Source: an uncultured Candidatus Saccharibacteria bacterium
GTDB taxonomy: Bacteria > Patescibacteriota > CALEFQ01
NCBI GenBank assembly: GCA_965230955.1
Contig: OZ246404.1
Coordinates: 500,995 to 564,994, forward strand
Reading direction: 5' to 3'
DNA: 64,000 bases
Each line of letters begins with the position of its first letter. The first letter of the stretch is position 1. Shown piece by piece: positions 11,910 to 34,155 of the stretch. The notes below the pieces were generated by a model. That model was not told the DNA's origin, made no database searches, and worked only from the letters and a program-made list of their open reading frames with translations. The translations under genes were made by a program, and so were the position numbers.

Positions 11910-12575
11910 ATGAAAACTACTGCCTGTATACCAACAAAAAATGAAGCAAAGGGGATAAAACAGGTTATCGCCGGAGTTCAGCCGTATGTCGACGAAATTC
12001 TAGTCGTCGATGGTCATTCTAGTGATCAAACCCGTGATTTGGCCCGAGAGTGCGGAGCGAGAGTTTTATTGGATAATTGCCGCGGTAAAGGCGCTGGTTT
12101 GCGTTTGGGTTTGCGGGAAGCCGGTGGAGATATCGTGGTTTTTATTGATGCGGATGGTTCGCATGACCCGAAGGATATTCCACAATTAATAGCTCCGATC
12201 AAGGAAAACAAGGCTGATTTAGTGGTTGCGTCTCGAGCGAAAGGCGGAAGTGATGAGTATCACATGAAATTTGGCCATTTGATCAGGCAATGGGGCAGTG
12301 AGTTTGCGGCGCTGACTATTAATTATCGCTGGAAAGTTGATTTGACCGATGTCCAGAATGGTTTCCGCGCCATCAAAAAAACGGTGGGATTAAAAATAAA
12401 TCTCAATGCCAACGATTTTGATATTGAGCAGGAAATGGTTATGAAAACCCTGAAGAATGGCTACCGTATTGTCGAAATCGGCAGCCATGAATCTTCACGC
12501 AGTTGGGGCAGTTCAAAACTGCCTACCTCCAAAGCCTGGAAATTCTTATATCGATTACTTAAGGAACTATTTTGA
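11910..12575 (+). CDS. small soluble GT2 glycosyltransferase (DPM1/GtrB catalytic-domain-like, no TM anchor)
   Basis: CIPTKNEAKGI...VVDGHSSDQTRD...FIDADGSHDP. 221 aa without C-terminal helices. Confidence 0.75.
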   Translation: MKTTACIPTKNEAKGIKQVIAGVQPYVDEILVVDGHSSDQTRDLARECGARVLLDNCRGKGAGLRLGLREAGGDIVVFIDADGSHDPKDIPQLIAPIKENKADLVVASRAKGGSDEYHMKFGHLIRQWGSEFAALTINYRWKVDLTDVQNGFRAIKKTVGLKINLNANDFDIEQEMVMKTLKNGYRIVEIGSHESSRSWGSSKLPTSKAWKFLYRLLKELF

Positions 12576-14014
12576 TGAAAGTTTATCTTATCAATCCGCC
12601 CGCGGTTAAGGGCGTGCGTATGGTACGCGAAGGCCGTTGTATGCAACGCGAAGGGGCTTGGACGGCAGTCTGGACTCCAATTTCGTTGGCATTGTGCGGA
12701 GCGGTGCTGGAAAAGTATGGGATGGAGTGTAAATTAACTGATTGCATTGTCGAGGAAATTGATTTGGCAAAATTGCAATCATTGGTTTCTGAGTTCAAGC
12801 CTGATTTGGTGGTTCTTAACACGGCAACTCCGTCTATTAACGGAGATTTGAAAGTCGGATCTTATTTGAAAAAAGTTTGTCCCTCGGTCAAGGTCGCGGC
12901 CATCGGCATCCATGTTACCGCAATGCCGGAGGATTCATTAAAAATTTCCAGCGGGCTTGATTATATCGTGAGCGGTGAGCCGGAGTATACCATTTTGGAG
13001 TTGGCCCGGAGACTGAAAACAAAGGCTTCTCCCGATGATATCAAAGGAATTATTTTGTCTCGGCAGGGCAAGATGATTGTAAATCCGCCTCGCCCCTATA
13101 TCGATAATCTGGATGAACTTCCTTTTCCGGCTTGGCACCTGATCGATAAAACCAAATACAAGATGCCTTTTTTGAACCGACCGTTTTTTCTTATTGCCAC
13201 CGGCCGGGGTTGTCCTTATAAATGCACTTTTTGCGCCGATTGCGCCTACTACGGTAAAAAATTGAGGCTCCGCACGCCAAAAAATATCGTTGATGAACTG
13301 GAATGGGCCGGCAAAAAACACGGGGTGATTGATTTTCTTTTTTGGTCCGAGTCATTCACGATCAATCGGCAATTTGCCAAAGATGTGGCTGATGAAATTT
13401 ACCGCCGGAAGCTGAAAATCCACTGGGTTTGCAATAGTCGCGTGGATAATGTTGATGAGGAATTGCTTCGTAAAATCAAACGGGCCGGTTGTTGGATGAT
13501 CGGCTATGGCTTAGAGTCGGCCAATCAAAAAATTCTCGACTCGGTCAAGAAGGGGATTAAGGTTGAGCAGACTATTCGGGCGGTAAAACTTTCTAAAAAA
13601 GCCGGCCTGGATGTTACGGCTCATTGCGTTCTCGGTTTCCCCGGCGAAACCGAAGAAACTATCAAGGAAACGATTCGACTGACCAAGAAGTTGCCTGTGG
13701 ATTTTGCGCAGTATTATTGTTCGGTTCCTTTCCCGGGATCGGAATTATATCAACAGGCGATTGATAGCGGTTGGGTCAATACGGACAACTGGGAACGTTT
13801 CGAGCAGAATTTTTCTATCATTGATATGCCCGGACTTTCATCCGAACGTGTAATGCAACTGCGGAAACAGGCTTATAAAGAATTTTATGTTCGCCCGCGG
13901 ATCGCGCTAAAGACACTGGGGCGAGTTCGGAATTTACACGACTTCTTGGAATTATTCCGGATGGTTCGGGCTTTCACCGATTGGACAAAAAAGGAAGATC
14001 AATGCGCCAGCTAA
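12575..14014 (+). CDS. B12-binding domain-containing radical SAM enzyme (class B rSAM), paralogue of 8379-9857
   Basis: TGRGCPYKCTFC rSAM motif. Shares ELLRK(I/M)K(R/A)(A/S)GC and (F/H)PGET(E/I)ET blocks with the first rSAM. TGATG overlap with upstream GT2 stop. Confidence 0.85.
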   Translation: MKVYLINPPAVKGVRMVREGRCMQREGAWTAVWTPISLALCGAVLEKYGMECKLTDCIVEEIDLAKLQSLVSEFKPDLVVLNTATPSINGDLKVGSYLKKVCPSVKVAAIGIHVTAMPEDSLKISSGLDYIVSGEPEYTILELARRLKTKASPDDIKGIILSRQGKMIVNPPRPYIDNLDELPFPAWHLIDKTKYKMPFLNRPFFLIATGRGCPYKCTFCADCAYYGKKLRLRTPKNIVDELEWAGKKHGVIDFLFWSESFTINRQFAKDVADEIYRRKLKIHWVCNSRVDNVDEELLRKIKRAGCWMIGYGLESANQKILDSVKKGIKVEQTIRAVKLSKKAGLDVTAHCVLGFPGETEETIKETIRLTKKLPVDFAQYYCSVPFPGSELYQQAIDSGWVNTDNWERFEQNFSIIDMPGLSSERVMQLRKQAYKEFYVRPRIALKTLGRVRNLHDFLELFRMVRAFTDWTKKEDQCAS

Positions 14015-17000
14015 TAAAAATTTTGTTGCCAATCGTGATCACGGTTGGTCTGGCTATTGTTTTTGTAGTCATCGCTTTTGATCGGCCGGCCGGCAATAGG
14101 TTGGCCGATTTTGATGTCTCAGCCTCAAATAACAGCTGCCAATCGCAATTTGATTCGCGGGGCAATGTCGGAATTTCTTATTCTCGGGCCGATGACTGTA
14201 ATGTGGAATTCACGGCAAAGTCACGGCTTTTGATTGAAAATATCGATCGAATAGATATGAAATACCTGGTTGCTGAAAATATAATTAAGGACGATCTGGT
14301 CAATATCGAAGTTTTCGGTCCGAATTGGAAGTTGATCAGCAAGAATAATTATCGAATCAGTTCCGGCATGGATTCAATCCCAGTTGACTTGCCTCAGCAG
14401 TTCAACGGTGAAATCAGTGTCATAAGATTTATTTTTTACCGCAGTGCTTTTACCGACCCGGCCGAGATAGATATTCGGTCGCTACAGTTTAGCTCCGATA
14501 ATTCTCCGAGCTGGTTTTCTGTTGTCCCGCAAATCGCCAATAAATTTGTTACCGCCGGGGCAATGATAAAAGTAGGTTTAATCAGTTTTGCCTATTATTT
14601 TTCTCGCGCCTTAAATATCCCCGTGCTGCTAAATACGATTTTGGGATTAAGCGGCATTCTAGTCTGCTTTCTTAGCGGTTGGATTATGGCGCGTCGGCTT
14701 TTTCATCAGTCTGAATTTTTACCGGCTGTATTGGCGGCTTTGCTGTTGGGTTTGGCTCAACTGACTCTGACCATGCTGGCTCTATCCTTGTTTCATCTCA
14801 TGTTTGCCGGCCCGGTCTTGGGTCTCAATTTGGCTTGTCTCGTTTTCTTGATAATCAGATATCGGTATCGATTTAGCTGGTCGCGCGCTCTGTTGCCGGT
14901 GCAAGGTTTACTACAGAAAGCTAGAAAAAATTTGTTTGTGTTTCTGGGGGTCACCATGGTTGCTGGCTTACTCCTAATTACTCTGATTCAAGCTTTGAAC
15001 GCCGCACCTTTTGGTTATGACGCCTTGGCTTATCATTTACCGATGGCGGTAGAATGGTCTGAATCGGGTCAAGTTTTCCCTATCAGTTTATCTAGTTTTC
15101 TCAGTTATATGCCCGGGGGTGCGGAATTGCTGATGTCGTACATAATCATGGCTTTTCGAAGTGACTTATTGACCAGTCTTATTCAATTGCCATTTCTTAT
15201 TATAACGGCTTTGGCGGTATATCAAATTGTCAGGAACCTCGGCGTTAGGCGAGTTGGCGCCATGATTGGAGCGCTGTTGGTTTTTTGCATTCCTGTTTTC
15301 ATCAAGGAAACTCAGCGGGCTTATATCGATTTAATTTTTATGGCGCTGGTGATGCTGGCGCTAAACTATGGTATTCAGTTTTGGCGCCGATTGGATCGAG
15401 CCAGCCTGCTTCTCGGAGCCATAACTGTCGGTTTGGCCATAGGCATGCGCTACACGGCTTGGCATTTTTTACTACCAATCTTGATTTTGTATTTGGTTGC
15501 GATGATTCGTTTTGTTCGTCAAAAGGCTTCATCGCGCCTGTTTCATTTCATTAAATTGTTATTAATTTTTATCGGCGCGGTTCTAATCTTCGGAGGATAT
15601 TGGTATATCAGGAATTGGATTATAACCGGCAATCCTATCTATCCTTCCGCTTTAGCGCCTGGAGGTTTTACTCTTTTTGATAGCGGAGTCAGCACGTCTT
15701 ATGCGAATTTTTTGTCGAGCATGACTATTTTCCCAAACTTCGGCGATATTAATTGGACGGCGCATCGCGAAGCGATTCTGACTGCCTTTGGAGCTCCTTT
15801 TCTGTGGGCGATGATGATTATTCTGATAGGCGGTTTGGTTGGTAATTTTATAGTCAAAAACACTTGGTCGGAAAAAATACTGCGGCTGTTTTTGATTTTG
15901 TTGCCTATTTATTCTATCTTCATATTCACGACCATTCCTTTTAGCTCTATTATCAATCAGTCGATGCGTTATGTTTTTGTTTTTGTTCCCCTGACAGCGG
16001 CCGTTTTGGGTTTTATTGCCGGTTGGCACAAGGTTTTTACCTGGCTGGCCGGTCTTTCCGTCCTAGGCCTTTTGATTAGTTCCTTCTGGCCGCTAGCGTT
16101 GTTTGATAAGAATAATACTATCAACTTTCCTTTTTCCGGTACAAAATTATTGGTTATTCTGTTGGTTGTTGCCTGGCTGTTGTTCCTTTTTTGGCCAATC
16201 CTTAATAAAATAATGGCCAATCGCTGGGGAAAAAATATATTACTGATTGCGATTTTGATTGGTAGCCTGGGCTTCATTGTGGGTTTTACCAATGATTATC
16301 AGATCAATAAATATTCGTGGTATCAATCGAATTACTATCAAGTTGGACAAGCGGCAAATTGGATCGATCAGAATGCCGACGGAGAGGGAATTAACCTGAT
16401 CGGTATAGATCGTCCATATCCTTTTTACGGCCGTAATTTCAAGAACAAGATTTATCAATTAAACTCGAATTCCGATCGAGATCTTCTTTATCATGAGTAC
16501 CGACGACCGTTTAAAGAAGATTGGCGAGATTACGGGCAATTAAATGTTCGACTGACTCGAAGTGGGCCGAATGATGATTCGCCTCTGCATTTAAAGCTTA
16601 ATTTTTATTCTACCGACGACAAAAATAACTATGTCCAGCTTGGTTCTTTGTCTGGGGAAATCACTGTCGGTACCAATGATTTCAGTCTGGATTTAGCCGA
16701 GTTATCGGCGCGCGACCGGGTCGTTATTATGGAATGGCAAATGACCGGTTTGGGCGATTCGGATGAATTGAAAATTGATGAGTTGGTGCTGACCGATCGT
16801 TCGTCTAAATCACCCAATTTTCCCGAAGATTTAGCAATTTTACCTAACACCTGGGAGGTAGGCGGGGAATGGCAAAATTCCGATTCAGTCTATTATGCTA
16901 CGCTTGATCGTGATTACCTTCTGCGAGTCGATTCGCCGGCAGGTGATAATGATACCGGCCGAAGTGGATATATTAAAGCCTATTTCAATACCAATGAATT

Positions 17001-17202
17001 TGGGCACATTTACGAAAATCCCAATAAAGAAATCTGGCTCCGCAATTTAAAAGAGAATGACATTAGATTTGTGGTTTCCACTTATAGCTCGACTGGAAAT
17101 GAGCGGCCGGAAATGCAGTGGATCGGCCAGCAGCCCGATATTTTTTCGGAAGTTTATTCAAATGACATGATCAAAATATTCAGGATTGATTGGCCTAATT
17201 GA
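14002..17202 (+). CDS. giant (1066 aa) polytopic membrane protein, GT-C-like. N-terminal TM, then about 170 aa ecto-domain, about 14 TM core, then about 400 aa C-terminal ecto-domain
   Basis: Hydrophobicity pattern. First-loop acidic/aromatic motif PFGYDALAYHLPMAVEW resembling GT-C first-loop motifs. RBS AAGGAAG 3 nt upstream of ATG 14002 (TTG at 13981 also in frame); stop of rSAM at 14012-14014 overlaps. Confidence 0.5.
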   Translation: MRQLIKILLPIVITVGLAIVFVVIAFDRPAGNRLADFDVSASNNSCQSQFDSRGNVGISYSRADDCNVEFTAKSRLLIENIDRIDMKYLVAENIIKDDLVNIEVFGPNWKLISKNNYRISSGMDSIPVDLPQQFNGEISVIRFIFYRSAFTDPAEIDIRSLQFSSDNSPSWFSVVPQIANKFVTAGAMIKVGLISFAYYFSRALNIPVLLNTILGLSGILVCFLSGWIMARRLFHQSEFLPAVLAALLLGLAQLTLTMLALSLFHLMFAGPVLGLNLACLVFLIIRYRYRFSWSRALLPVQGLLQKARKNLFVFLGVTMVAGLLLITLIQALNAAPFGYDALAYHLPMAVEWSESGQVFPISLSSFLSYMPGGAELLMSYIIMAFRSDLLTSLIQLPFLIITALAVYQIVRNLGVRRVGAMIGALLVFCIPVFIKETQRAYIDLIFMALVMLALNYGIQFWRRLDRASLLLGAITVGLAIGMRYTAWHFLLPILILYLVAMIRFVRQKASSRLFHFIKLLLIFIGAVLIFGGYWYIRNWIITGNPIYPSALAPGGFTLFDSGVSTSYANFLSSMTIFPNFGDINWTAHREAILTAFGAPFLWAMMIILIGGLVGNFIVKNTWSEKILRLFLILLPIYSIFIFTTIPFSSIINQSMRYVFVFVPLTAAVLGFIAGWHKVFTWLAGLSVLGLLISSFWPLALFDKNNTINFPFSGTKLLVILLVVAWLLFLFWPILNKIMANRWGKNILLIAILIGSLGFIVGFTNDYQINKYSWYQSNYYQVGQAANWIDQNADGEGINLIGIDRPYPFYGRNFKNKIYQLNSNSDRDLLYHEYRRPFKEDWRDYGQLNVRLTRSGPNDDSPLHLKLNFYSTDDKNNYVQLGSLSGEITVGTNDFSLDLAELSARDRVVIMEWQMTGLGDSDELKIDELVLTDRSSKSPNFPEDLAILPNTWEVGGEWQNSDSVYYATLDRDYLLRVDSPAGDNDTGRSGYIKAYFNTNEFGHIYENPNKEIWLRNLKENDIRFVVSTYSSTGNERPEMQWIGQQPDIFSEVYSNDMIKIFRIDWPN

Positions 17203-17207
17203 CAAAC

Positions 17208-19946
17208 ATGCCAACCCCTAGTCGAAAATTGTTTTTCCTGATATTTATCGGCATCGTAATCGCGTTGGGTTATTTTGCTTTGCGCCAGACGTTCGTCAAT
17301 CCCGGCACCTTGGGTCATAATTGGGACTGGTCATTTCCCGCTCTCGCATCGCAATTAGCCACAGCTATGCCGAAGATGTTTTCCAGCTGGTCATACACCA
17401 GTCTGGGATCGCCCGCAATTTTAAGCATTCCGGTCAATCTGTTGCTGGCGGTTTTTTTCTCCTTTGGAACGATCGGTATCTCCGGAGAACTTGTCTCTAA
17501 AGCTGTAGTATTCAGCACCTTGATTATTGGCAGTATCGGGATGTATCTCTACCTGGGGCTGTTCTTTTTGAGATCGGCCAAACCCACTTGGCTCGGTGTT
17601 TTACCGGTTTTTCTGGGTGCCGTCTTTTTCGGATTCTCTCCATTCATCTTTAGTGAATTTATTGGCGGGGCGGTGTCGCAGTTCATTTCTTATGCCGTCA
17701 TTCCTTTCGCTTTGTTTTTTTTCGCCTTGTCGCAAAATTCTGCCAAATTTCGTTGGTTTTTGATATTCGCTACAGCCTTGGTTTTATCGATACTCACGAT
17801 TTCGACCCATAATTTGATCATCGCGGTTGTTTTAACGGTTCTCTTGATTGTCGTTTCCGAGAATCGCCGCCGATACTTCTGGAGCTTGATCGGATTGGCT
17901 GCGTTTTATATCCTGATGAATTTATACTGGATGATTCCGTTTGTTTCAGAATTATTTTTTGCTCAGACCTTTTTTGAATCTGAATCATTTTTGTCGCTGA
18001 TCAATGTCATTAAGGCGGCCCCGAATATTGCCCGAGCTTGGTTTCAGATCGGTTATGCCCGACTCTTTTTTGAAAACATCATGTCGGTTGCCTGGCTGCC
18101 TTGGTGGATCTTGGGTGTCGGCGGTTTCTGTGCGGTGCTTATCGGTTCGGTTTTAAAATCAAAAAACAAGTACGCAAATTTTTGGTTATTGTTATTTCTC
18201 GGGGCACTGGTTTTCGTCACGGCCGGTGTGGCGCCGCTCGGGGAGCAAGTGGTTTGGTTATTCCAAAATGTTTCAGTAATTCGAGGTTTTAGATCAATTC
18301 AGCATTTCATTCCAGTCAGCGTCTTTACCTTTTCGGTTGTATTGGCTTTTGGTGTTAATTTTATCTTGATCCGCCTGAAACCGGCTAATAAATTTATCGG
18401 CCAAGCGGTGATAGCCGTGCTAGTTTTGGGCACGGCGGTCTGGATCGCCCCTTTTATCATCAGCGGCGATATTGGCAGTGCCAAGCTGGCTGAACGAGAG
18501 ATGAGCTATATTGATAGTTTCCAATTGTCGCCCGGCTATATCAAGGCGCACCAATTAATCAACGAGGAAAAAGAAACTGTCAGATTTTTGCCTTTGCCGG
18601 CCGCATTTTCTCCTGTTTATCTGCCGACTGAATATCAAGCCTATGCCCAGGGCGGCGATCCTACACTGTCCACGTTTGCTATTCCGGCTGTTGTGGCAGA
18701 TTTCGCGCCACAGGGGCATCCCAAGAAAATGATGCAGGTTTTTGAAAAGAATATTTGCGAGGAAAACCTTTCGCCGTCCGAAAACAATCAGTTGCTGTCC
18801 TTGCTAAATATCAAATATATAATGCAGCGGCAAGATCTCGAACCCAACCCCGGCAGTCTCTGCAGTAAACGTTGGTTTCCTGATTTAATTGATGATTATT
18901 TGCGATCCGATCCGGGCTTAAAATCTGTTTTTAGTGAAGATTACATCAAGCTTTACCAGTTGTCCGATTATTTTCCGAGAATTTATGCCGCAAATCGTAA
19001 CCTCATGATTGATGGTCCGGTCGATACGCTAAATGACGTTATTAAACATGATGATCTGCAGTTATCCACTAATATTTTTTTTACTGATCTGAAACCTTCT
19101 CCTCGGCCAGACCAGATTTCCACTAATTACCTTCGGCAGAGTTTTGAGGTCGAAGATACCCAGTTTCTAGAGGCTTCCGGTATATGGTCGAGTGACAAAG
19201 GCAGTACCACCAGAGATATAATTTATCCGGCCAGCGGGTCGGAATTCAACGAGCTGGTTTATAAAATACCGATTAAGGAATCCGGGCAATACGAGTTATA
19301 TGTTAAAATAAGACATGACACCGACGAAGGTCTGCTGCAAGCGACGATCGATGGGGAAAAAATAGGCCAACCGCTCGATGTCTATTACAAAAGTCCTTAT
19401 TCGGCTGAAGGCAAAAGTTCATATTACTACCAATCGGTAAAAGTTGGAGATGTGGACCTGGCTGCCGGCGATCATCAGTTTAGCTTTGCCAGTCTACCCG
19501 CTCTGGATAAAAGGCTCGAAAAATACAAGCAGAGCCTGGACATGTTTTATCTGGTGAAAATAGAAAATTCTTTTATAGAGTCGGAACAAGGCGCTCTGCC
19601 CGCTGTGCAATTTTCGCAAACCAGTCCGACGACCTACCGGGTTAGTGTCTCCGGCGCCAACGCCCCGTACTACCTTAATTTCTTGGAAACATATAATTCC
19701 AACTGGAAATTACGGATAAATGGACAAGAAATTTCTGCGGATAAACATTTCGTTGTTAATGGCTATGCCAATTCTTGGCGTATAGACAATCAACAAGATT
19801 GGCAGGGTGAAATAGTGTATCGGACCCAAGAGTTGTTTTATCTCGGCCTGTGGTTGTCCGGCTTGGGGGCTCTGGCCTTGCTGATGTTAACTTTATCTCT
19901 GCCGTATTTTGCGAAGAAGCCTAAGCAAATCGACTATGCCAAGTAA
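17208..19946 (+). CDS. YfhO-like GT-C membrane glycosyltransferase (about 12 TM, C-terminal ecto-domain, terminal TM helix)
   Basis: N-terminal loop GHNWDWSFPAL; C-terminal module SNWKLRINGQEISADKHFVVNGYANSWRI...YLGLWLSGLGALALL (pattern W-K-x-x-x-N-G ... N-G ... terminal TM) as in YfhO-family proteins. Contains AAGDHQFSFASL beta-module motif. Confidence 0.5.
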   Translation: MPTPSRKLFFLIFIGIVIALGYFALRQTFVNPGTLGHNWDWSFPALASQLATAMPKMFSSWSYTSLGSPAILSIPVNLLLAVFFSFGTIGISGELVSKAVVFSTLIIGSIGMYLYLGLFFLRSAKPTWLGVLPVFLGAVFFGFSPFIFSEFIGGAVSQFISYAVIPFALFFFALSQNSAKFRWFLIFATALVLSILTISTHNLIIAVVLTVLLIVVSENRRRYFWSLIGLAAFYILMNLYWMIPFVSELFFAQTFFESESFLSLINVIKAAPNIARAWFQIGYARLFFENIMSVAWLPWWILGVGGFCAVLIGSVLKSKNKYANFWLLLFLGALVFVTAGVAPLGEQVVWLFQNVSVIRGFRSIQHFIPVSVFTFSVVLAFGVNFILIRLKPANKFIGQAVIAVLVLGTAVWIAPFIISGDIGSAKLAEREMSYIDSFQLSPGYIKAHQLINEEKETVRFLPLPAAFSPVYLPTEYQAYAQGGDPTLSTFAIPAVVADFAPQGHPKKMMQVFEKNICEENLSPSENNQLLSLLNIKYIMQRQDLEPNPGSLCSKRWFPDLIDDYLRSDPGLKSVFSEDYIKLYQLSDYFPRIYAANRNLMIDGPVDTLNDVIKHDDLQLSTNIFFTDLKPSPRPDQISTNYLRQSFEVEDTQFLEASGIWSSDKGSTTRDIIYPASGSEFNELVYKIPIKESGQYELYVKIRHDTDEGLLQATIDGEKIGQPLDVYYKSPYSAEGKSSYYYQSVKVGDVDLAAGDHQFSFASLPALDKRLEKYKQSLDMFYLVKIENSFIESEQGALPAVQFSQTSPTTYRVSVSGANAPYYLNFLETYNSNWKLRINGQEISADKHFVVNGYANSWRIDNQQDWQGEIVYRTQELFYLGLWLSGLGALALLMLTLSLPYFAKKPKQIDYAK

Positions 19947-21474
19947 TTTCAGACAATTTTTATCGAATCAGCGCTTGTTTTTATTCTGGGGCGGTTTGCT
20001 TATTTGGTTACTGGCCATGTGGGTGTTTAACTTTGATCTTTTGGGTGCGGCGGCCGGCTTTCTTTTGTATTTCGCTCTCGTCTATAAAATTTCTCAGAAA
20101 TACATTTTATTGGCGTGTGCCGCCTTTGGTGCCGCCAGTTTAGTTAGTTTTTTTATTGTCGGCTTGGATTCGGTCGTTGGAAATTATTCCCTAATCATAG
20201 CCTTCTTTTTGTTAGCAATATCGGTTTTGATAATTATGCGCGAATCGCTTATCAAGCGGCCCCGCTGGGTGATTGATTTTTCCGGTCGCCAAACAGCTTG
20301 GCTGGCGGTAATAATTTTGATTTTCATTGCTTTTTTCATTGTTCAACCGGTCTTGAGCCAACCGGGGTATTCATTTTCCGGTGATTTTTCTTTTCCTTTC
20401 TCTTTGGAGAATTACTGGCAAAACCGAATCAATACCTGGAGTGTTTCTCACAGTGCTAGCGTCTTTGGAGACTTGGGGCATCTGTTTTATCTCAGTCCCG
20501 GGATTGGGCTGGCACTGGCCAGTGGAGGAGGAATGGCGCTGCTATTAAAAATTTTAATTGTTATTCCTTTTATCGTTTCCGGGCTGGGTATGTTTTTTCT
20601 GGCTCGAATGATTTTTCGGTCAATCTATCCCGGATTAAACAAATATATAGTCCCGGCGGCGCTGGTCGCGGCTGTCATTTATCAATTTAATCCCTGGGTC
20701 CTCGATCATCAGCCCCATTATTTTTTGCTGGTCGGGTATTCATTTTTGCCGTTAACGCTGATGTTTGCCGTGCTGGCCTGGGAAAAACAACGATTTCTTT
20801 GGATTTTTCTGGCCGCTTTGTTTTTTGCAATCACGACCGTGACCCCTCATTACATGGTTTATACGGCGATCGTTTTACTGATAGTATTTTTGATCTATCT
20901 CGTGGCCGATATCTGGCGTCGACGCTGGGCGCTGGCCGGAAAGCGATTTGTAATCAGTATTATGCTTTTATTACTGGCCATTATTTTTTCATCTTTTTGG
21001 CTTTGGCCGCTCGTTAGCGTGCAACTTGATACCGGTGAAAAATTAGCACCTGATTACGTATTGCGAGTGGATGATATCGTGGCCGCCAATTCTAATTTGT
21101 CAGTGGAAGCCGTATTTCAATTAAGCACGCCGGATCTGAAAAATACCGACAGCCAATGGCTCTGGCGTTTGGCGGCCTTTAGCCTGCCGGCCCTGGCCCT
21201 GACCGGTTTTGTTCTGAATTATAAGCGTCGCTGGGCCTTAACTCTGTTGATTTTACTTCTGGCCGCCTGGGTTATTCCATTGGTATTTTTGTTTTTACCT
21301 GGAGTCTATTCCGATCTGATATATCGACTGCCTTTTTCATGGATTCTGCATGATCCCAGCCGAACGCTTGGCTTGGCTTGCCTCGGGTACGGACTGCTGA
21401 TTGGTCTGTTTATCCTTCGCCTGACGGATCACTGGTCCAAAAAAATGTCAGTTAAAGATAATTATGCTAAATAA
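19936..21474 (+). CDS. polytopic membrane protein (about 14 TM) resembling the TM core of a YfhO-like GT-C enzyme, no ecto-domain
   Basis: All-hydrophobic 512 aa. Loop motif SGDFSFPFSLENYWQN, which parallels the first-loop motifs of the two upstream proteins. ATG 19936 overlaps the upstream stop. Confidence 0.45.
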   Translation: MPSNFRQFLSNQRLFLFWGGLLIWLLAMWVFNFDLLGAAAGFLLYFALVYKISQKYILLACAAFGAASLVSFFIVGLDSVVGNYSLIIAFFLLAISVLIIMRESLIKRPRWVIDFSGRQTAWLAVIILIFIAFFIVQPVLSQPGYSFSGDFSFPFSLENYWQNRINTWSVSHSASVFGDLGHLFYLSPGIGLALASGGGMALLLKILIVIPFIVSGLGMFFLARMIFRSIYPGLNKYIVPAALVAAVIYQFNPWVLDHQPHYFLLVGYSFLPLTLMFAVLAWEKQRFLWIFLAALFFAITTVTPHYMVYTAIVLLIVFLIYLVADIWRRRWALAGKRFVISIMLLLLAIIFSSFWLWPLVSVQLDTGEKLAPDYVLRVDDIVAANSNLSVEAVFQLSTPDLKNTDSQWLWRLAAFSLPALALTGFVLNYKRRWALTLLILLLAAWVIPLVFLFLPGVYSDLIYRLPFSWILHDPSRTLGLACLGYGLLIGLFILRLTDHWSKKMSVKDNYAK

Positions 21475-23821
21475 ACCAACAGCCATACAGCTTTTTATGT
21501 TTCTCGTCGGTGCAATCGCGACGCTATTATTGATTTGGGCCGCGCCTGTCTATCTTAATTTTTGGGTACCGGATTTCTCCCCGAAAGTTTTACCGGCAGA
21601 ATTTGAACACGAGAGCCAGCTACAGTTATCGGACAGCGGAACTGGTCGGTATCTTAATTTGCCGGTTGTCTTCAATGCTAAGCAATTTGAATGGAGTAAT
21701 GAAAAAAAAGTCTATGATTTTCCGGCTTTTCTTTCAAACAAACCTTCTTTCTCCTCTCAAAATAGCTATGCCAGAAATTTTTTACTTTTTTTGCAAGAAA
21801 AATGGCAACAAGGGCAGAGACTCAGTCCTTATTTCAATCTAGCCGGGGTCAGTCGAATTGTATTTCGAACTGATTTGAAAAATAATGAATTGTCCGAACC
21901 GGACAAGATGAAATTGCGAGAGGTATTATTGAGGGACGATGGCTTGACCAGTGGCGAACGCCGAGGATTCATCACGGAATTCACCAATGCTTCGCCCAAT
22001 GAAATTGTTTATGCCAATGAACAGACTTTATTGGTTTGGGGCGGTCTAGATACTATACAAAGCCTCCGAGCGGCCCAAAATTTTGATCCGGCTAAAACCA
22101 ATTTATTGTTTGCTCATCAGTATCTGAATCCTGGCCAAATCGAAAGGTTGGCTGATTTTTCCGATGCTCTGGTGATAAAGAACGGTACCCGTCGCGATGA
22201 TCTGATCCCCAGTTTTATTGATCCTGATTTTTTCATCCGCCCGTATAATTACCTCAATTCGCTGGAAAATCAGACCTCTTGGAACAAGGCCAGCGTTTAT
22301 GAGCCTTTGCATGGCGAATGGCACAAAACATTGCGCGAGAGTCTTCAATTGCAAGATTGGGACTTTGATTACGGTCAGGGGCTGGTTTATTCGATGAGAT
22401 CGGGAGAAGGAGAATCTTTTTTCCCGACAGTAATGAATCTGGATTTCCAAGTCCGGGAACCGGGCGATTATTATTTATTGATCAGGCAGTTTGTCAACAA
22501 TCGCGGCGAGCAGATGTCTTATCGAATCGACAACTCTGATCGTAAAAAAATAAGCAGCTATTCACCGATCGGGCAATGGCAATGGCAAAAAGTCGAGACT
22601 GTCTCGTTAACAGCCGGCCAGCACAAAATAACTCTGGAGAACACCGATGGATTTTATGCCGTCAATTTGATGGCTTTTGTTCCGAAAGCGGCCTATGACC
22701 GAGCCCTGGAAAAAGTCGATGACTATTTGGCTCAAAAAAAGATTATCTATACCCAGGAGTTAAATGTCGCCCGGCTCTTGGCCGGCATTGAGACTGAATT
22801 ACCGATCAAATCCGGATCGGAGTTTAACCTCTCGTGTCCGACTTCAGAATGTCAAAACTATAACCTGGTTTCCGATAATGACGAAAAAATAATGGCGGCA
22901 TCTGAGTACGTTAAAAAAGATAAATTTGATCTTTTGCGATACTTCCCGGGCGGTTCCTTTGATAAACTGAGGCTGGAATTCAATGAAACGGAATCAGTTT
23001 CCGGGATAACTTTGAAAATTCATGATCCCGCCGGCATTAAGCTGAATATTCAGGATGGGAAAAAATGGTTCGAAATATCTTCCCAGGCAAAAAGTAAGCA
23101 TTTCAGAGTCTTATCCGAGCCTATTGCCGTCAAGCCTGACAGTACCTATGCTTGTGATCTGGAATTTCAGTTGGAAAATATCAAAGATTTGTCGGTCAGA
23201 GTTTTGCAGTATGACAAAATTGATGATATTGGCAAAAATAGTCCGAAACGAAGTGATAAAATTTCAACGAAACTGACCGAGGATAATCAAGCGGTTGTAA
23301 TAATCGACGATATTATAACTCGCCCCGACGTAAACTATGTCGTATTTGAGTTTTCTGCGGAGCAAAATAAATTGAAAGACAGTCGATGGGCATTGACCGA
23401 TTTTGCCCTGGCCAAAGTGGATGACGGGGTCACTGAGAAAACATCGTCAATGGTTATCATGCCGCCAGATTTTGAGTTTTCCAATAAGCAATACCCGATA
23501 ACTTTTGACAAGAACAGCGGCATAAATTATTCGGTTGATTTGCCCGAAAAAACCAGTTTGCTTTTGACTGTCACCGAAAGCTATGACGATTTGTGGCATG
23601 CCGGCTGCGGTACGGATCAATCGTTCGACCATGTCATGAACTATGGATTTATGAATGGGTTTTTGATTGGTGAGGGATGCCCGGGGTCGGTCGAGATTAC
23701 CTACGTCCCGCAAAAATGGTATCGATACGGAATTTGGGCGAGTTTAATATCAATCTTCCTGGGTGCGATTTTTTCCTTAATTCTATGGCGCAAACGGAAA
23801 AATCATGATCACCGCGAATAG
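21464..23821 (+). CDS. bitopic envelope protein: N-terminal TM, about 730 aa ecto-domain ending in a YfhO-C-terminal-like module, then a C-terminal TM anchor with basic tail
   Basis: N-terminal helix LFMFLVGAIATLLLIWAAPVYL. C-terminal SYDDLWHAGCG...NYGFMNGFLIGEGCPGSVEITYVPQKWYRYGIWASLISIFLGAIF...RKRKNH. Contains TAGQHKITLEN motif. Its frame opens directly after a stop at 21422-21424, so it is not a frameshifted continuation. Confidence 0.45.
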   Translation: MLNKPTAIQLFMFLVGAIATLLLIWAAPVYLNFWVPDFSPKVLPAEFEHESQLQLSDSGTGRYLNLPVVFNAKQFEWSNEKKVYDFPAFLSNKPSFSSQNSYARNFLLFLQEKWQQGQRLSPYFNLAGVSRIVFRTDLKNNELSEPDKMKLREVLLRDDGLTSGERRGFITEFTNASPNEIVYANEQTLLVWGGLDTIQSLRAAQNFDPAKTNLLFAHQYLNPGQIERLADFSDALVIKNGTRRDDLIPSFIDPDFFIRPYNYLNSLENQTSWNKASVYEPLHGEWHKTLRESLQLQDWDFDYGQGLVYSMRSGEGESFFPTVMNLDFQVREPGDYYLLIRQFVNNRGEQMSYRIDNSDRKKISSYSPIGQWQWQKVETVSLTAGQHKITLENTDGFYAVNLMAFVPKAAYDRALEKVDDYLAQKKIIYTQELNVARLLAGIETELPIKSGSEFNLSCPTSECQNYNLVSDNDEKIMAASEYVKKDKFDLLRYFPGGSFDKLRLEFNETESVSGITLKIHDPAGIKLNIQDGKKWFEISSQAKSKHFRVLSEPIAVKPDSTYACDLEFQLENIKDLSVRVLQYDKIDDIGKNSPKRSDKISTKLTEDNQAVVIIDDIITRPDVNYVVFEFSAEQNKLKDSRWALTDFALAKVDDGVTEKTSSMVIMPPDFEFSNKQYPITFDKNSGINYSVDLPEKTSLLLTVTESYDDLWHAGCGTDQSFDHVMNYGFMNGFLIGEGCPGSVEITYVPQKWYRYGIWASLISIFLGAIFSLILWRKRKNHDHRE

Positions 23822-24896
23822 AATTTTAGTTATCAAGCGCGACGCTTTGGGCGACGTTATTTCCGTCACCCCGTTTTTAGAAGTTCTGCGTCGTAATTTT
23901 CCCGCAGCCCATATTACTTACCTGGTTGGATCATGGTCGCAAGCTGTCCTGAAAAACAATCCCAGTATCGATGAATTGGTTGTGGTTGATTCTAAAACTT
24001 GGCAGAACCCGATTAAAAAATTCCTGGCCCGGGCTAAATTGGGCAAACGATTGCAGTCGCAAAATTTTGATACAGTGTTTATTCTCCAAGGACCGGCGCC
24101 GTTTCGCTTTTGGGAAAACTTCGCTCTAGCCTTAGGAGCGGTAAATCGATTGGGATTCAAAAAGCACGGAGCCTCTTCCTCCTTGACTGGTTTGATTGAA
24201 TTGCCGGTTTATACCGATCACCTTTTTAAAGTCCTCAGGCGGAATCGGGCTGAATACTATCTAGATTTGCTTATCCGGGCCGGCGTCCGAGATACCACTA
24301 ACGACGGAAATAAGCTGTATGCGACTGCCGAAGACCGACATTTTGCAGAAAATTTTTGGACCAAAAATAATTTGGCCGGTAAAAAAGTCATTACTATCGC
24401 TCCCGGCGGGGCAGTGAATCCCGGGATGAAGCAACTGGCGAAACGCTGGCCGGCAGATTGTTACGCGCAAGCCATAGATCGATTAACCGATCAGCCTTCC
24501 GTCCGGATTGTATTTGTCGGCGGTCCCAGTGATAAATCATTGATCGAAGAAATTACCCGGAAATTGACGCCGATCAAACAACGCCAGATCCTTAATACGG
24601 CCGGATTAACAAATATCCACCAAACGGCCGAATTAATCGCCAGATCAGCGCTATTTATCGGAAATGACTCTGGCACTATCCATATTGCTTCCACGACCAA
24701 AACGCCTATAATTGGCTTGTATGGCCCCACAAACCCTGTGGTTGATGGTCCATATAAGGCCCGGGGTATCAATTTGTTCCATAAAACGTCGTTTTCACCG
24801 TGCTACACCATGGACTGTTCCGGCCACAAACCTTGTATTGAAAATATCACCGTCGAAGAGGTGATTACCACCGCTCAAAAAATCCTAGAACCTTGA
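23805..24896 (+). CDS. GT9 family glycosyltransferase (heptosyltransferase-like)
   Basis: ILVIKRDALGDVISVTPF N-terminal motif and GNDSG...H, typical of WaaC/WaaF/WaaQ-type GT9. 17-nt overlap with upstream gene. Confidence 0.85.
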   Translation: MITANRILVIKRDALGDVISVTPFLEVLRRNFPAAHITYLVGSWSQAVLKNNPSIDELVVVDSKTWQNPIKKFLARAKLGKRLQSQNFDTVFILQGPAPFRFWENFALALGAVNRLGFKKHGASSSLTGLIELPVYTDHLFKVLRRNRAEYYLDLLIRAGVRDTTNDGNKLYATAEDRHFAENFWTKNNLAGKKVITIAPGGAVNPGMKQLAKRWPADCYAQAIDRLTDQPSVRIVFVGGPSDKSLIEEITRKLTPIKQRQILNTAGLTNIHQTAELIARSALFIGNDSGTIHIASTTKTPIIGLYGPTNPVVDGPYKARGINLFHKTSFSPCYTMDCSGHKPCIENITVEEVITTAQKILEP

Positions 24897-24935: not shown

Positions 24936-26402
24936 TTGTCTACCATCAAGCGTGTCGCGAAAAATACACTCTGGCTGACAATCGCCGAAATCGGCGCCAA
25001 GGGACTTGGTTTTGTCATTGCCATTATTATCGCCCGGTATCTCGGTCCGGAGGATTATGGCAGTTATGCTTTTGCCATATCATTCGTGACATTGTTTTTG
25101 GTCTTGGCTGATTTTGGCATGCGGCCCCTGCTGGTGCGTGAAGTGGCGCGAAACAACCAGTTGGCGGAAAAATATCTGGCCAATTTTTTGACTCTCAAAA
25201 TCTGGCTGACTTTTTTGCTTTTCGGCGCCGTGGCGCTGGCCTTGTGGATTTACGGTACGCCGCTAAATTTATTTATCCTAACCATGGTGGCGGCGGTCGA
25301 AATCGGGGTCAATAGCTTTTCGGAAATATTTCGGGGAGTTTTCCAGGCTTTTGAACGCATGAAATTCGAAACCACTTCCCGGATTCTAAATAAGTTTTTG
25401 ATACTCGTTGGGACAATCGCTGTGATTGTTCTGGGCTTGCGCACGCTGTCGATTATGCTGGTTCTGTTAATCGCCGGGATAGTCACGGCCGTCTATACCG
25501 TGATCGTTTGTCGAAAATACTTCGTCAAAATCAAACTGGCCTTTGATAAAGTGTTTATCAAAGAAGCGCTGAAGCAAAGCTTGCTTTTTGCAGTGACGAA
25601 TATTTTTATTTCCATTTATTTCAAGATAGATAGCGTCATGCTGGAAAAAATGCGCTCAGTCACGGAAGTCGGGTACTACAATACCGCCTATGAACTGGTT
25701 TTCGCTTTTATGTTTGTGCCGACTGTATTTTCAGCCGCTGTGTACCCGGTCTTATCACGGTTCTTCAAAGACAGTCCCGGAAAAATCCAAGCTTTGGTGG
25801 CGCGATTCACCAAATACTATTCACTGACGGCGATGGCTCTGGTGGTTTTTCTGATGTTGCTGGGCGGTCCTTTGATAAAATTATTTTTTGGGATTCAGTA
25901 CGAACCATCGATTATACTGTTTCAGCAGTTGGTGGTGGTTTTGGTCTTTGTATTTCTCAATTATCTCGGCGGTACTTTGCTCAATGCCTCGAATAAGCAA
26001 ATTGTTTCCACAATTGCCTCGGGAGTTTGCGCCGGGGTGAATATCGGTCTGAATCTCTGGCTGATCCCGGCCTATGGCGCTTCCGGAGCGGCAGTAGCGA
26101 CGATAATTACGGAAGCGATATTATGCTTGATTACTTTTATATATATTGACCGCCGGCTCTACCGGGTTTTTACCCGAGAAAACTGGTTCAAGGGTTTTAA
26201 AGTTGCCGTTATGGTGGTAGCGACCGGCGTATTGGCTTATTATTTGGCTAAAGTAAACATCTATCTTAGTTCGGTCGCCAGCTTGGGATTGTTTATCGGC
26301 TTGATTTTTGTTCTGCGCCTCTATAATCCGCAAGACCGCGAATATCTCCGAGTAATACTTAGGCGCCCAAACAAAACCGGCCCGGATGAGCCGATCGAAT
26401 AA
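24936..26402 (+). CDS. Wzx-type oligosaccharide/polysaccharide flippase (MOP superfamily)
   Basis: LWLTIAEIGAKGLGFVIAIIIARYLGPEDYG N-terminus; about 14 TM. TTG is the first in-frame start after stop at 24921; no ATG before residue about 61. Confidence 0.8.
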   Translation: MSTIKRVAKNTLWLTIAEIGAKGLGFVIAIIIARYLGPEDYGSYAFAISFVTLFLVLADFGMRPLLVREVARNNQLAEKYLANFLTLKIWLTFLLFGAVALALWIYGTPLNLFILTMVAAVEIGVNSFSEIFRGVFQAFERMKFETTSRILNKFLILVGTIAVIVLGLRTLSIMLVLLIAGIVTAVYTVIVCRKYFVKIKLAFDKVFIKEALKQSLLFAVTNIFISIYFKIDSVMLEKMRSVTEVGYYNTAYELVFAFMFVPTVFSAAVYPVLSRFFKDSPGKIQALVARFTKYYSLTAMALVVFLMLLGGPLIKLFFGIQYEPSIILFQQLVVVLVFVFLNYLGGTLLNASNKQIVSTIASGVCAGVNIGLNLWLIPAYGASGAAVATIITEAILCLITFIYIDRRLYRVFTRENWFKGFKVAVMVVATGVLAYYLAKVNIYLSSVASLGLFIGLIFVLRLYNPQDREYLRVILRRPNKTGPDEPIE

Positions 26403-26436: not shown

Positions 26437-26473
26437 AACCCCGCGAATCTCTGAACTATCAGGACCTGGGGTT
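26437..26473. terminator. putative bidirectional terminator between convergent flippase (+) and GT9 (-) genes
   Basis: aacccc / ggggtt stem enclosing a 25-nt loop, flanked by AAAAAA (plus side) and ATTTTAT; an additional weak hairpin aaagtgt / acacttt sits at 26401-26422 on the flippase stop. Stems are weak. Confidence 0.35.
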
Positions 26474-27503
26474 ATTTTATATACTGTTCAACCGTCCGAA
26501 GAACATCGAGAACCGAAATATTGTCCAGACAGCCATGATTGAAAGTATCACAAATAGTTTTATAGCAAGGATACTTGGGGCAATCCTGGGCGCGGGTCAG
26601 AATAGTATAATGCTCGCACCAAGGATGCCACATTGACGGGTAATCTGTCCCACTGTGCAAATCAATGACCGGCGTGCCGACCGCGGCGGCAATGTGCATC
26701 GGGCCGGAGTCGTTCGAAATATAGAGATCAAGCTCGGCCAATAGTGCAGCCAGTTGACGCAAATCGGTTTGTCCGGCAACGATAAACGCCGGTTTAATCA
26801 ATGTAGATGAAATTTTTTGAGCCAATCCCAGATCGGAATTGCTGCCGGTAATAACAATCGTGCCTTGGTATTTTTCCTGCAATTTTCGCGCCACTTCAGC
26901 AAAACGAGCGATTGGCCAGCGCTTTGCTTCGGTTCCGGCGCCGGGATTAAGTCCGATTATCGGCCGAGGTAGGTCGCGTAGAGAATTGTGAGCTTTTGCT
27001 TGTTCCGCTTCGGTTATCGTCCAAATCAGTCTTGGCTGGCTAATATCGGCGCCCAGTCGCTCCGCCAGACGCAGATTTCGAAGGACGACATGCTCTTGGG
27101 GATTACTTTGCCTGACTTTTGTGGTCAGTAGTTGATCCTTTCCCGGCACGAAGAAACCGATTCTCTGTTTTGCCCCCAAAGCCCAGGATAATAGCCTGAT
27201 TACACGATTGCGACTGCGTCCCAAAACCGCCAAGTCATATTTATTCGACCGTAATTTCCGGAAAGTACTGATTGGCCGGCAGGATTTGGCCTTACCGCGA
27301 TTAAATTGGCGCAGATTTAATGTGTAGATCTGATTAATATCGGAATTAGATTCCAATACCGGCTTGGCCCAGCTCCCGACAACCGCGTCGATTTGCGCAT
27401 CGGGGAAATGTCGGCGCAGTGCGTGAATCATCGGCGTAGCCAGCAAAACATCGCCGATATGATCGGGCTGAATGACTATAATTTTTTTATACCGATCAAT
27501 CAT
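26472..27503 (-). CDS. GT9 family glycosyltransferase (heptosyltransferase-like)
   Basis: IIVIQPDHIGDVLLATPMIHAL...SNDSGPMHIAAAVGTPVI. 8-nt overlap with downstream GT4. Confidence 0.85.
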   Translation of the reverse strand: MIDRYKKIIVIQPDHIGDVLLATPMIHALRRHFPDAQIDAVVGSWAKPVLESNSDINQIYTLNLRQFNRGKAKSCRPISTFRKLRSNKYDLAVLGRSRNRVIRLLSWALGAKQRIGFFVPGKDQLLTTKVRQSNPQEHVVLRNLRLAERLGADISQPRLIWTITEAEQAKAHNSLRDLPRPIIGLNPGAGTEAKRWPIARFAEVARKLQEKYQGTIVITGSNSDLGLAQKISSTLIKPAFIVAGQTDLRQLAALLAELDLYISNDSGPMHIAAAVGTPVIDLHSGTDYPSMWHPWCEHYTILTRAQDCPKYPCYKTICDTFNHGCLDNISVLDVLRTVEQYIK

Positions 27504-32913: not shown

Positions 32914-33013
32914 GGTGATCAACTCATCAGATCATTTGTCTCGCCAAGGTAATTATTCTTTTAAGCATGGGAGATCCCATTCGGGAAATACTTAAAAGAA
33001 TAATTAGCTTGGC

Positions 33014-34087: not shown

Positions 34088-34155
34088 AAATACACAAATA
34101 GTGGTCTGAATAAAAATCAAGAATCTAACGCTTATTTTAGCCCAAAGTTACCATT

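Follow-up and report, generated by a model that had tools for sequence, protein, structure and literature searches.

Two overlapping genes in a 64,000-nucleotide stretch of DNA from an uncultured Candidatus Saccharibacteria bacterium (contig OZ246404.1; hereafter the window) raise the question of whether one membrane enzyme can be naturally encoded as two chains, or whether a single gene has been broken by a frameshift. The original prediction described the pair as a split YfhO-like enzyme. Here, we examine whether the split is real, to which family the pair belongs, and what the two products may do together.

Gene organization at the junction

The features that define the junction are the following:
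19936..21474, + strand: gene 1 (N-subunit, 512 aa, all membrane), open reading frame starting at ATG
21422..21424, + strand: TGA closing the gene 2 frame, 42 nt upstream of the gene 2 ATG
21439..21445, + strand: A7 homopolymer within the stretch where a 1-nt indel fuses the frames, absent as a conserved feature in the orthologues
21464..23821, + strand: gene 2 (C-subunit, 785 aa), from the open reading frame call, with its own ATG
21464..21474, + strand: 11-nt overlap ATGCTAAATAA, comprising the gene 2 start and the gene 1 stop

On re-checking, the open reading frames, their relative frames, the 11-nt overlap and the TGA were all as first described, with gene 2 lying in the +1 frame relative to gene 1. 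The public gene call P0005 corresponds to the 512-aa form of gene 1; a TTG-extended version of the frame begins at 19909. The overlap is kept as ATGCNAAATAA in three orthologous lineages. A Shine-Dalgarno motif is missing in 36 of the 37 open reading frames of the window, gene 2 among them, and its absence there is therefore uninformative on independent initiation. No RNA genes were found in the window with Rfam. One independent Logan assembly (L006) is 100% identical to the window locus over 8358 nt and possibly derives from the same sample. The A7 run had gone unmentioned in the original prediction.

Conservation of the split across lineages

Taken by itself, the window is compatible with a homopolymer error, since the A7 run lies inside the 50-nt stretch, from the gene 2-frame stop at 21422 to the gene 1 stop, in which the two frames can be fused; a 1-nt deletion there joins them via a plausible loop. 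If the split were a frameshift introduced by sequencing or assembly, or an inactivating mutation of very recent date, such as an extra A in this run, the true gene would be a single frame of about 1300 aa; the majority of relatives are indeed fused. Against this, two genes are present at seven other independent loci, which stem from different samples and assemblers and show five junction geometries (eight loci and six geometries with the window included), and L001 and L003/L004 have the same 11-nt overlap without any homopolymer. Further, both reading frames are retained at 59-66% identity to their orthologues with heavy synonymous divergence, a conservation similar to that of neighbouring intact genes; judging from these comparisons, purifying selection is acting on both halves. 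The orthologous loci thus exclude a homopolymer error and already effectively refute this explanation, to which we assign next to no probability. The split is conserved in related microbes and is therefore real, rather than a sequencing error or a dead gene, and the proposal of a natural two-gene arrangement is well supported.

At every split locus with enough sequence, the two genes lie side by side in a constant order, either overlapping or 8 nt apart, and such pairs are maintained across lineages down to approximately 25% identity. Adjacent, co-oriented separate reading frames thus occur in several lineages while fused homologues occur elsewhere: about 100 of the best 150 representatives are fused, and fused versions are found in more distant relatives. 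The comparison of fused and split forms at orthologous loci, suggested at the outset as a check, favoured the split. Unlike the window pair, P0004 (1254 aa), P0010 (1298 aa) and a 1056-aa reading frame of the Methanomassiliicoccales MAG MVRB01000209 are single polypeptides of the same uncharacterised family, and fused members carry a basic-rich loop of 11-24 residues in place of the stop and start at the window junction. They nevertheless share with the window pair the motifs GDFxFP, FNPW, SPHY, YEPLHGEWH, WDFDYG and YDPLW...NGF. The N-terminal four-helix extension of gene 1 is also found in fused P0004, P0010, P0015 and P0039, and P0004 has the same neighbours as the window pair (a GT-C_AftD paralogue upstream and a GT9 gene downstream). 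A homologue search with the N-subunit alignment added just three new proteins.

Three candidate loci were set aside. L005/P0003 had appeared to be a non-overlapping split, but its upstream 123-aa fragment is the N-terminus of the gene 2 homologue, broken by a run of N, which makes this locus uninformative on splitting; a full-length version of P0003 was found in L015. In L004, the gene 2 homologue ends after 74 aa, beyond which the sequence is divergent; we treated this as a chimeric contig end and not as biology. L008 (Brockarchaeota) was rejected as a gene 2-only protein: its reading frame extends beyond the start of the contig and shows no interruption at the split-site loop, and the protein is probably fused.

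A true split could still be bridged during translation. If ribosomes made a programmed +1 shift, for instance on the AAA-TAA-A that ends gene 1, they would yield a fused full-length enzyme instead of, or alongside, two chains. An A-site stop codon beside a shift-prone codon is the classical +1 context (prfB, Euplotes); gene 2 lies in the +1 frame in six overlapping junction types, and the three closest orthologues all keep the heptamer AAATAAA, with variation in the bases around it. This constancy, however, would also follow from the dual coding of these bases (K-stop and N-K), and the 8-, 17- and 20-nt junctions do not have AAATAAA as a common element. Moreover, the gene 2 ATG is kept at every junction while residues in the gene 1 frame change, and in L014 a stop codon lying 3' of the gene 1 stop closes the gene 2 frame, so that no frameshift could fuse these halves. 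We therefore regard programmed frameshifting as improbable.

Family assignment

In Firmicutes, teichoic acids are glycosylated by GT-C enzymes of the YfhO family (PF09586), in which a polytopic GT-C core at the N-terminus is combined with a large extracytoplasmic domain and a TM helix at the C-terminus. The window pair is alike in general topology, but the YfhO label could not be upheld: the PF09586 profile matched none of window genes 13981, 17199, 19909 and 21464 at E ≤ 0.1, and 0 of 28 relatives at E ≤ 0.01. The C-terminal module of gene 2 that had been called YfhO-type aligns with AftD residues 1193-1282 and with the C-terminus of a paralogue in the window.

Judged by profile searches and predicted structures, arabinofuranosyltransferase D of Mycobacterium (AftD; PDB 6W98, 6WBX and 6WBY; Pfam PF11847 GT-C_AftD, formerly DUF3367) is the nearest relative that has been characterised. 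Family profile A5 matched 6w98_A with an E-value of 3.6e-12, pairing profile positions 44-542 with AftD 47-543 and 960-1047 with 1193-1282, and profile A2 matched AftD at 2.8e-7. A profile of the six N-subunits alone matched no PDB entry at E ≤ 10, and the link to AftD hence rests on the deeper profiles and the predicted structures. Gene 1 had no match to PF11847 at E ≤ 0.1 and did not reach its gathering score, only 4 of 28 family members matched this model at E ≤ 0.01, and no Pfam domain scored above threshold in gene 1 alone or, likewise, in either half.

There are clear differences from AftD, to which sequence identity is only about 11-14%. AftD is one chain of approximately 1400 aa, whereas the window enzyme comprises two, broken apart between TM10 and TM11; in place of TM12-16 and the acyl-carrier-protein-binding bundle of AftD, the window enzyme has a single C-terminal TM helix; and the four extra N-terminal TM helices of gene 1 are absent in AftD. 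Since the family spans bacteria and archaea, the window enzyme likely uses a sugar other than arabinofuranose from decaprenyl-phospho-arabinose.

The membrane half

Two conserved motifs were located in gene 1:
20380..20397, + strand: GDFSFP, residues 149-154, in the first extracytoplasmic loop (alignments)
21349..21366, + strand: HDPSRT, directly before the last gene 1 TM helix, the TM10 equivalent (alignments)

Gene 1 had been described as purely polytopic with about 14 TM helices, and the hydropathy scan gave 14 hydrophobic segments, in agreement with the AF2 model. Four extra N-terminal helices precede the equivalents of GT-C TM1-TM10, in the helix arrangement of a GT-C membrane module. Within GDFSFP, D150 comes after the TM1 equivalent (residues 123-141) and before the helix that follows it, the loop 1 position at which GT-C enzymes have an acidic residue. 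It does not vary in an alignment of 28 sequences and is nearly invariant in one of 55. It is a candidate catalytic or donor-binding aspartate and may correspond in position to AftD D41, the alignments being only approximate here. Counterparts of the motif are NWDWSFP in the paralogue, GDLNFP in P0004 and GDFNTP in the archaeal L007 reading frame. In HDPSRT, which pairs with AftD 'PLRNVHK' in profile alignments, R476 is invariant in all six N-subunits, and R472 is nearly so across the 55 aligned family sequences.

The soluble half

The corresponding features of gene 2 are:
21479..21553, + strand: N-terminal TM helix, residues 6-30, equivalent to TM11 of the fused relatives and AftD (hydropathy; AF2 helix 7-37)
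22289..22324, + strand: ASVYEPLHGEWH motif, best-conserved block in the ecto-domain, invariant in gene 2, P0002, P0003 and P0004
22358..22393, + strand: WDFDYGQGLVYS motif, with W299, D302 and G306 invariant or nearly so
23579..23662, + strand: C-terminal module SYDDLW...NYGFMNGF, directly before the last TM helix (profile search, BLASTP)
23729..23785, + strand: C-terminal TM anchor, then a basic tail (RKRKNHDHRE) (open reading frame, hydropathy, AF2)

Both the N-terminal TM helix and the terminal anchor that had been claimed for gene 2 were seen by the hydropathy scan (two hydrophobic segments, residues 6-24 and 756-774) and in the AF2 model (pLDDT 86.8, pTM 0.86). The N-terminal helix matches the P0004 helix that follows the basic loop and, by profile alignment, AftD at about residues 400-430. 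It is followed by an alpha/beta soluble GT-C domain, beta-sandwich domains, the C-terminal module and the anchor, a single TM helix (residues 749-784) with an 11-residue tail. When the model was compared with the PDB using Foldseek, the top three matches were the AftD entries (E 8.6e-19 to 6.7e-18), and the next-best match (E 5e-9) was ten orders of magnitude worse. Gene 2 is thus modelled with the large extracytoplasmic region seen in AftD, made of an alpha/beta GT-C domain with beta-sandwich/CBM domains. The alpha/beta domain of AftD makes up one half of the active-site cavity and contains the essential D474, for which E80 or D85 of gene 2 may be the counterpart, again by approximate alignment. 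The C-terminal module pairs with AftD 1193-1282 ('ESINPGW...VNGWQQGW') by profile search and with the paralogue C-terminus. The orthologue P0002 is 59% identical to gene 2. Used as a search pattern, ASVYEPLHGEWH also recovered archaeal homologues in two archaeal MAGs.

The single-chain paralogue upstream

Upstream of the pair lies a further family member:
17208..19946, + strand: single-chain distant paralogue, 912 aa, with 11 TM helices, an ecto-domain and a C-terminal TM helix

This protein had been put forward as an intact version of the pair. It does hold both parts in one chain, but it is not a close comparator, being only 22-26% identical and without the N-terminal four-helix extension of gene 1. 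By BLASTP against its 915-aa open reading frame translation, gene 1 residues 136-455 align with residues 19-338 (26% identity, E 8e-6), and gene 2 residues 537-758 with 673-885 (22% identity, E 0.005); an HMM of gene 2 matches residues 498-906 at E 4e-12. Its score against PF11847 GT-C_AftD is 26.2 bits, at a cutoff of 26. A better comparison is offered by the fused proteins P0004 and P0010.

A proposed two-chain glycosyltransferase

Building on the gene structure, conservation, fused relatives, fold assignment and break position established above, we think it probable that genes 1 and 2 encode two subunits of one AftD-like GT-C glycosyltransferase, and that gene fission parted them within the short cytoplasmic loop linking core TM helices 10 and 11. 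Gene 1 would contribute TM1-10, the four extra N-terminal helices and the conserved loop 1 aspartate. Gene 2, starting at its own ATG, would enter the membrane as the TM11 equivalent, leaving its N-terminus on the cytoplasmic side, and would supply the soluble alpha/beta GT-C domain, the carbohydrate-binding-type beta-sandwich domains and the C-terminal anchor. The overlapping stop and start would keep the genes co-transcribed and probably translationally coupled. The chains may then assemble in the membrane, forming the active-site cavity between the helices of gene 1 and the soluble domain of gene 2, and could move a sugar from a polyprenyl-phosphate donor to the cell-surface glycan of the surrounding gene cluster of about 35 kb. 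GT-C enzymes are a class using lipid-linked sugar donors, and this cluster holds GT2 genes potentially making lipid-linked sugars as well as a Wzx-type flippase.

Alternatively, the halves may have become independent after fission, gene 1 as a minimal GT-C transferase or other membrane protein and gene 2 as an anchored glycan-binding surface protein. The CBM-like beta-sandwich domains found by structure matching in gene 2, and CBM_35 or CBM_6 matches in some relatives, would fit such a role. Yet the tight adjacency and fixed order of the genes at every sufficiently sequenced split locus, the retention in gene 2 of the TM11 equivalent and of the alpha/beta domain whose AftD counterpart carries D474, and the equal conservation of its top blocks, YEPLHGEWH and WDFDYG, in fused enzymes all speak for continued cooperation, and we consider independence rather unlikely.

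To our knowledge, every solved GT-C glycosyltransferase (STT3/PglB/AglB, ArnT, PMT, Emb, AftA/B/D and the ALG enzymes) has its whole catalytic unit on one chain, and a full-text literature search found no description of a split GT-C enzyme. Assembly of the chains would mean that the GT-C fold can withstand an interruption between TM10 and TM11, and would provide natural material for reconstitution and domain swaps. For annotation, such gene pairs are now labelled hypothetical or mistaken for frameshifted pseudogenes, because neither half carries an above-threshold Pfam domain.

Evolution of the split

We tentatively raise the possibility that the GT-C catalytic super-domain has a natural TM10/TM11 seam that was cut more than once in evolution; if true, a two-polypeptide AftD-type active site arose independently at the same loop. 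Such an enzyme would then be the first GT-C transferase known to occur naturally as two chains, and a ready system for studying how membrane and soluble halves cooperate. Neighbour-joining trees of the ecto-domain half and the membrane half, which are only indicative as they were built from simple corrected p-distances, both place split forms in two separate clades, A (window type) and B (P0012/P0013 type), with fused P0010, P0004, P0039, P0015 and P0049 falling between them. Monophyly of all split forms was recovered in 0 of 200 bootstraps in each tree. Within clade A, the window type is accompanied by P0008 and P0009 in the ecto-domain tree and by L012 in the membrane-half tree.

Gene structure and the question of error

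The overlapping genes examined here, the all-membrane gene 1 (N-subunit) and the ecto-domain-bearing gene 2 (C-subunit), taken as a whole are best explained as encoding two subunits of one split AftD-like GT-C enzyme, a reading we consider probable; AftD itself, the mycobacterial arabinofuranosyltransferase D, is a single chain. When the ORF map was redone, the ORFs, their overlap and frames, and the TGA position were as originally described:

19936 (ATG) to 21472-21474 (TAA), + strand: gene 1, 512 aa
from 19909, + strand: TTG-extended ORF of gene 1
21464 (ATG) to 23821, + strand: gene 2, 785 aa
21422-21424, + strand: TGA closing the gene-2 frame
21439-21445, + strand: A7 run, within a 50-nt stretch where a 1-nt indel fuses the two frames

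In the public gene call (P0005), gene 1 has 512 aa and lacks the TTG extension. The overlap is 11 nt (ATGCTAAATAA), with gene 2 in the +1 frame relative to gene 1, and a hydropathy scan found 14 hydrophobic segments in gene 1 and two in gene 2 (residues 6-24 and 756-774). The junction of gene 1 with its single-chain upstream paralogue is also an 11-nt overlap (19933-19946: gac TATGCCAAGTAA, ...DYAK*), near-identical in sequence to the gene 1/gene 2 junction (21461-21474: aat TATGCTAAATAA, ...NYAK*); since the paralogue/gene 1 overlap is 20 nt in the homologous contig L001, unlike the 11 nt here, this likeness may be chance.

Because the A7 run lies within the fusible stretch, a homopolymer error is a real possibility from the window sequence alone. 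Orthologues of both halves were retrieved by word-indexed protein searches and their contigs inspected; these loci exclude a sequencing error or fresh pseudogene, to which we give a negligible probability. L001 (Logan SRR22387775) shares the window's gene order (1070-aa protein, 913-aa paralogue, 513-aa gene 1, 784-aa gene 2, GT9) and likewise has an 11-nt overlap (ATGCGAAATAA), with the homopolymer absent. A third orthologue is found in L003 (JGI) and L004 (ENA), with the junction ATGCCAAATAA. An exhaustive profile search added distant gene-2-only proteins, whose N-terminus is a Met followed by several basic residues and a single TM helix, and on every one of their contigs a gene-1-like ORF lies directly upstream:

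L009: 17-nt overlap; upstream fragment 35% identical to the gene 1 C-terminus (E 8e-14)
L012 and L013: 20-nt overlap; upstream gene 506 aa
L010 and L011: 8-nt overlap; upstream gene 562 aa, 24% identity (E 2e-18)
L014: 8-nt gap; upstream gene 552 aa
L015: 8-nt overlap

The two-gene layout is kept in L001, L003/L004 and L009-L015; more distant relatives include fused forms. Between the window and L001, identity is 64% for gene 1 and 59% for gene 2. These values resemble those of the intact paralogue (61%) and of the GT9 gene (73%) and exceed that of the neighbouring 1073-aa protein (41%), and different codons encode about half of the conserved residues; the comparable identity and changed codons together indicate that both ORFs have long been under purifying selection. 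The original prediction of a natural two-gene arrangement rather than a fresh frameshift is borne out by the orthologous splits and this conservation. The gene for the 1073-aa membrane protein (13981-17202), a weak match to PMT_2 and to the LIC_10190 family, evolves faster than any other in its block (41% identity to its L001 orthologue versus 59-73% for neighbours).

Programmed +1 frameshifting could instead yield a fused enzyme, in keeping with an AAATAAA motif that is invariant across the three closest orthologues and with the +1 frame of gene 2 at every overlapping junction. Yet the motif is not common to the other junction types and its conservation is accounted for by dual coding, while every split locus retains an ATG for gene 2, preceded at 6-42 nt by a stop that closes its frame. 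In L014 this closing stop sits downstream of the gene 1 stop, so that no frameshift can fuse the pair there. We therefore regard frameshifting as very unlikely.

Two public contigs contain artefacts. L005 3-2303 was rejected as a two-gene locus, as its gene 2 homologue contains an N run and P0003 is a truncated product; the intact 781-aa version is found in L015. In L004 2344-2700, only 74 aa of the gene 2 homologue are encoded before a stop, beyond which the sequence is divergent; a chimeric contig end is the probable cause. The N-subunit of the P0012 lineage ends in an extremely Lys-rich tail of ~50 residues (L010 5850-6008; …KKAQKKKLKIEKLNSKIRKMKKKLQKVKNNTYV), absent from other N-subunits.

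Family assignment and proposed mechanism

The pair had been labelled YfhO-like, a name we abandon: the YfhO model matched none of the four large membrane proteins of the window at E <= 0.1, and none of 28 relatives in Pfam. Neither gene 1 nor gene 2 has a Pfam match above threshold, and the neighbouring paralogue (17208-19946, + strand) barely reaches PF11847 (GT-C_AftD); among the relatives, 4/28 match GT-C_AftD and a few CBM_35 or CBM_6. The sole convincing PDB match of the family profiles was M. abscessus AftD, aligned from a 51-sequence alignment over AftD 47-543 (E 3.6e-12); a second aligned stretch (1193-1282) comprises the C-terminal 'NPGW...NGW' module and the next TM helix.

In AftD, K39, D41, E251, K361 and D474 are all essential, D474 lying in the soluble part. 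Gene 1 supplies ten core helices preceded by four additional ones at the N-terminus, together with the invariant Asp of loop 1 (D150 in GDFSFP), and gene 2 the eleventh helix, an alpha/beta domain (residues about 45-300), beta-sandwich domains and an anchor; the fission therefore divides the catalytic super-domain between the two chains. Judged by this content, neither product alone should be a complete enzyme. We propose that the overlapping genes would be transcribed together, with probable translational coupling, and that their products would join in the membrane to form one enzyme whose active site is shared between the two chains. Functional independence of the two genes after fission seems improbable: they are strictly adjacent, gene 2 still carries TM11 and the alpha/beta domain, and its strongest motifs are just as conserved in fused enzymes.

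Genes are frequently split by fission, and breaks in loops are often harmless to membrane proteins. Nevertheless, we know of no split GT-C enzyme, and a full-text literature search found no description of one. Should its chains assemble, the pair would show that the GT-C super-domain can be broken at this seam and would provide a naturally split enzyme for reconstitution work; recognising it may keep such gene pairs from pseudogene annotation.

Fused relatives and number of fissions

A search with the gene 2 profile gave 3365 cluster representatives with E <= 1e-3, of which 320 reached E <= 1e-30. When the best 150 of the 3365 were re-scored with separate HMMs for each half, ~100 had both domains in a single chain of 1000-1450 aa, the gene-2-like domain beginning within 10-20 residues of the gene-1-like one. 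Six were complete split-type C-subunits and the remainder fragments. The fused P0004 (1254 aa) lies in a syntenic locus (920-aa GT-C_AftD gene, P0004, GT9), its C-terminal 750 residues aligning with gene 2 and its N-terminal 500 containing the gene 1 motifs. Fused homologues also occur in archaeal MAGs (Methanomassiliicoccales MVRB01000209, L007 4699-7869; Brockarchaeota JAFNIQ010000106, L008 3-2027, probably fused) with the same motifs as bacterial ones (YEPLHG.W, WDFDYG, YDPLW...NGF), and the AftD-like family thus spans bacteria and archaea.

The break falls in a short basic-rich loop between the penultimate and last membrane-core helices (KSSRFGARTKK in P0004), predicted by the positive-inside rule to be cytoplasmic because gene 1 has an even helix number (14) and the two chain ends that meet at the junction are basic. 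The four extra helices of gene 1 (residues 1-105; 19936-20250) precede the GT-C core, and the model is of low confidence there (pLDDT about 50-70). Among the best 150 relatives this extension is confined to split forms and to the fused P0004, P0010, P0015 and P0039; it is missing from AftD, from the neighbouring paralogue and from most of the family.

Neighbour-joining trees, a crude distance method, were built from 399 ecto-domain and, separately, 370 membrane-domain columns. Both recovered two split clades: clade A, with the window, L001, L003 and either P0008/P0009 (ecto tree) or L012 (membrane tree) (bootstraps 160/200 and 132/200), and clade B, with P0012/L010 and P0013/L014 (200/200 and 199/200). 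Fused proteins were placed between them, and no replicate of either tree (0/200 each) grouped all split forms as one clade. We treat recurrent fission as a tentative possibility and not as a result; a single fission with later re-fusion may also account for the pattern.

Surrounding glycan cluster

The pair sits within a very large cluster that also includes at least five GT2 and at least five GT4 genes, two methyltransferases and another PMT_2-type GT-C:

851-39923: surface-glycan gene cluster
23805-24896, 26472-27503, 31747-32922, 33014-34120: four GT9 (heptosyltransferase-like) paralogues
2967-5483, 13981-17202, 17208-19946, and gene 1 with gene 2: at least four GT-C-type membrane enzymes
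8379-9857, 12572-14014: two B12-binding radical-SAM enzymes
24936-26402: Wzx-type flippase

The assembled split enzyme would decorate the surface glycan made by this cluster. Two ORFs inside the cluster, of 650 aa (29792-31744, - strand) and 243 aa (34921-35652), matched no Pfam family at E <= 1e-5. The latter start (34921) is the one among 37 ATG- or GTG-start ORFs of the window with a clear upstream GGAGG-type Shine-Dalgarno sequence; start-proximal regions are A-rich, and translation initiation in the source genome seems to proceed largely without SD pairing.
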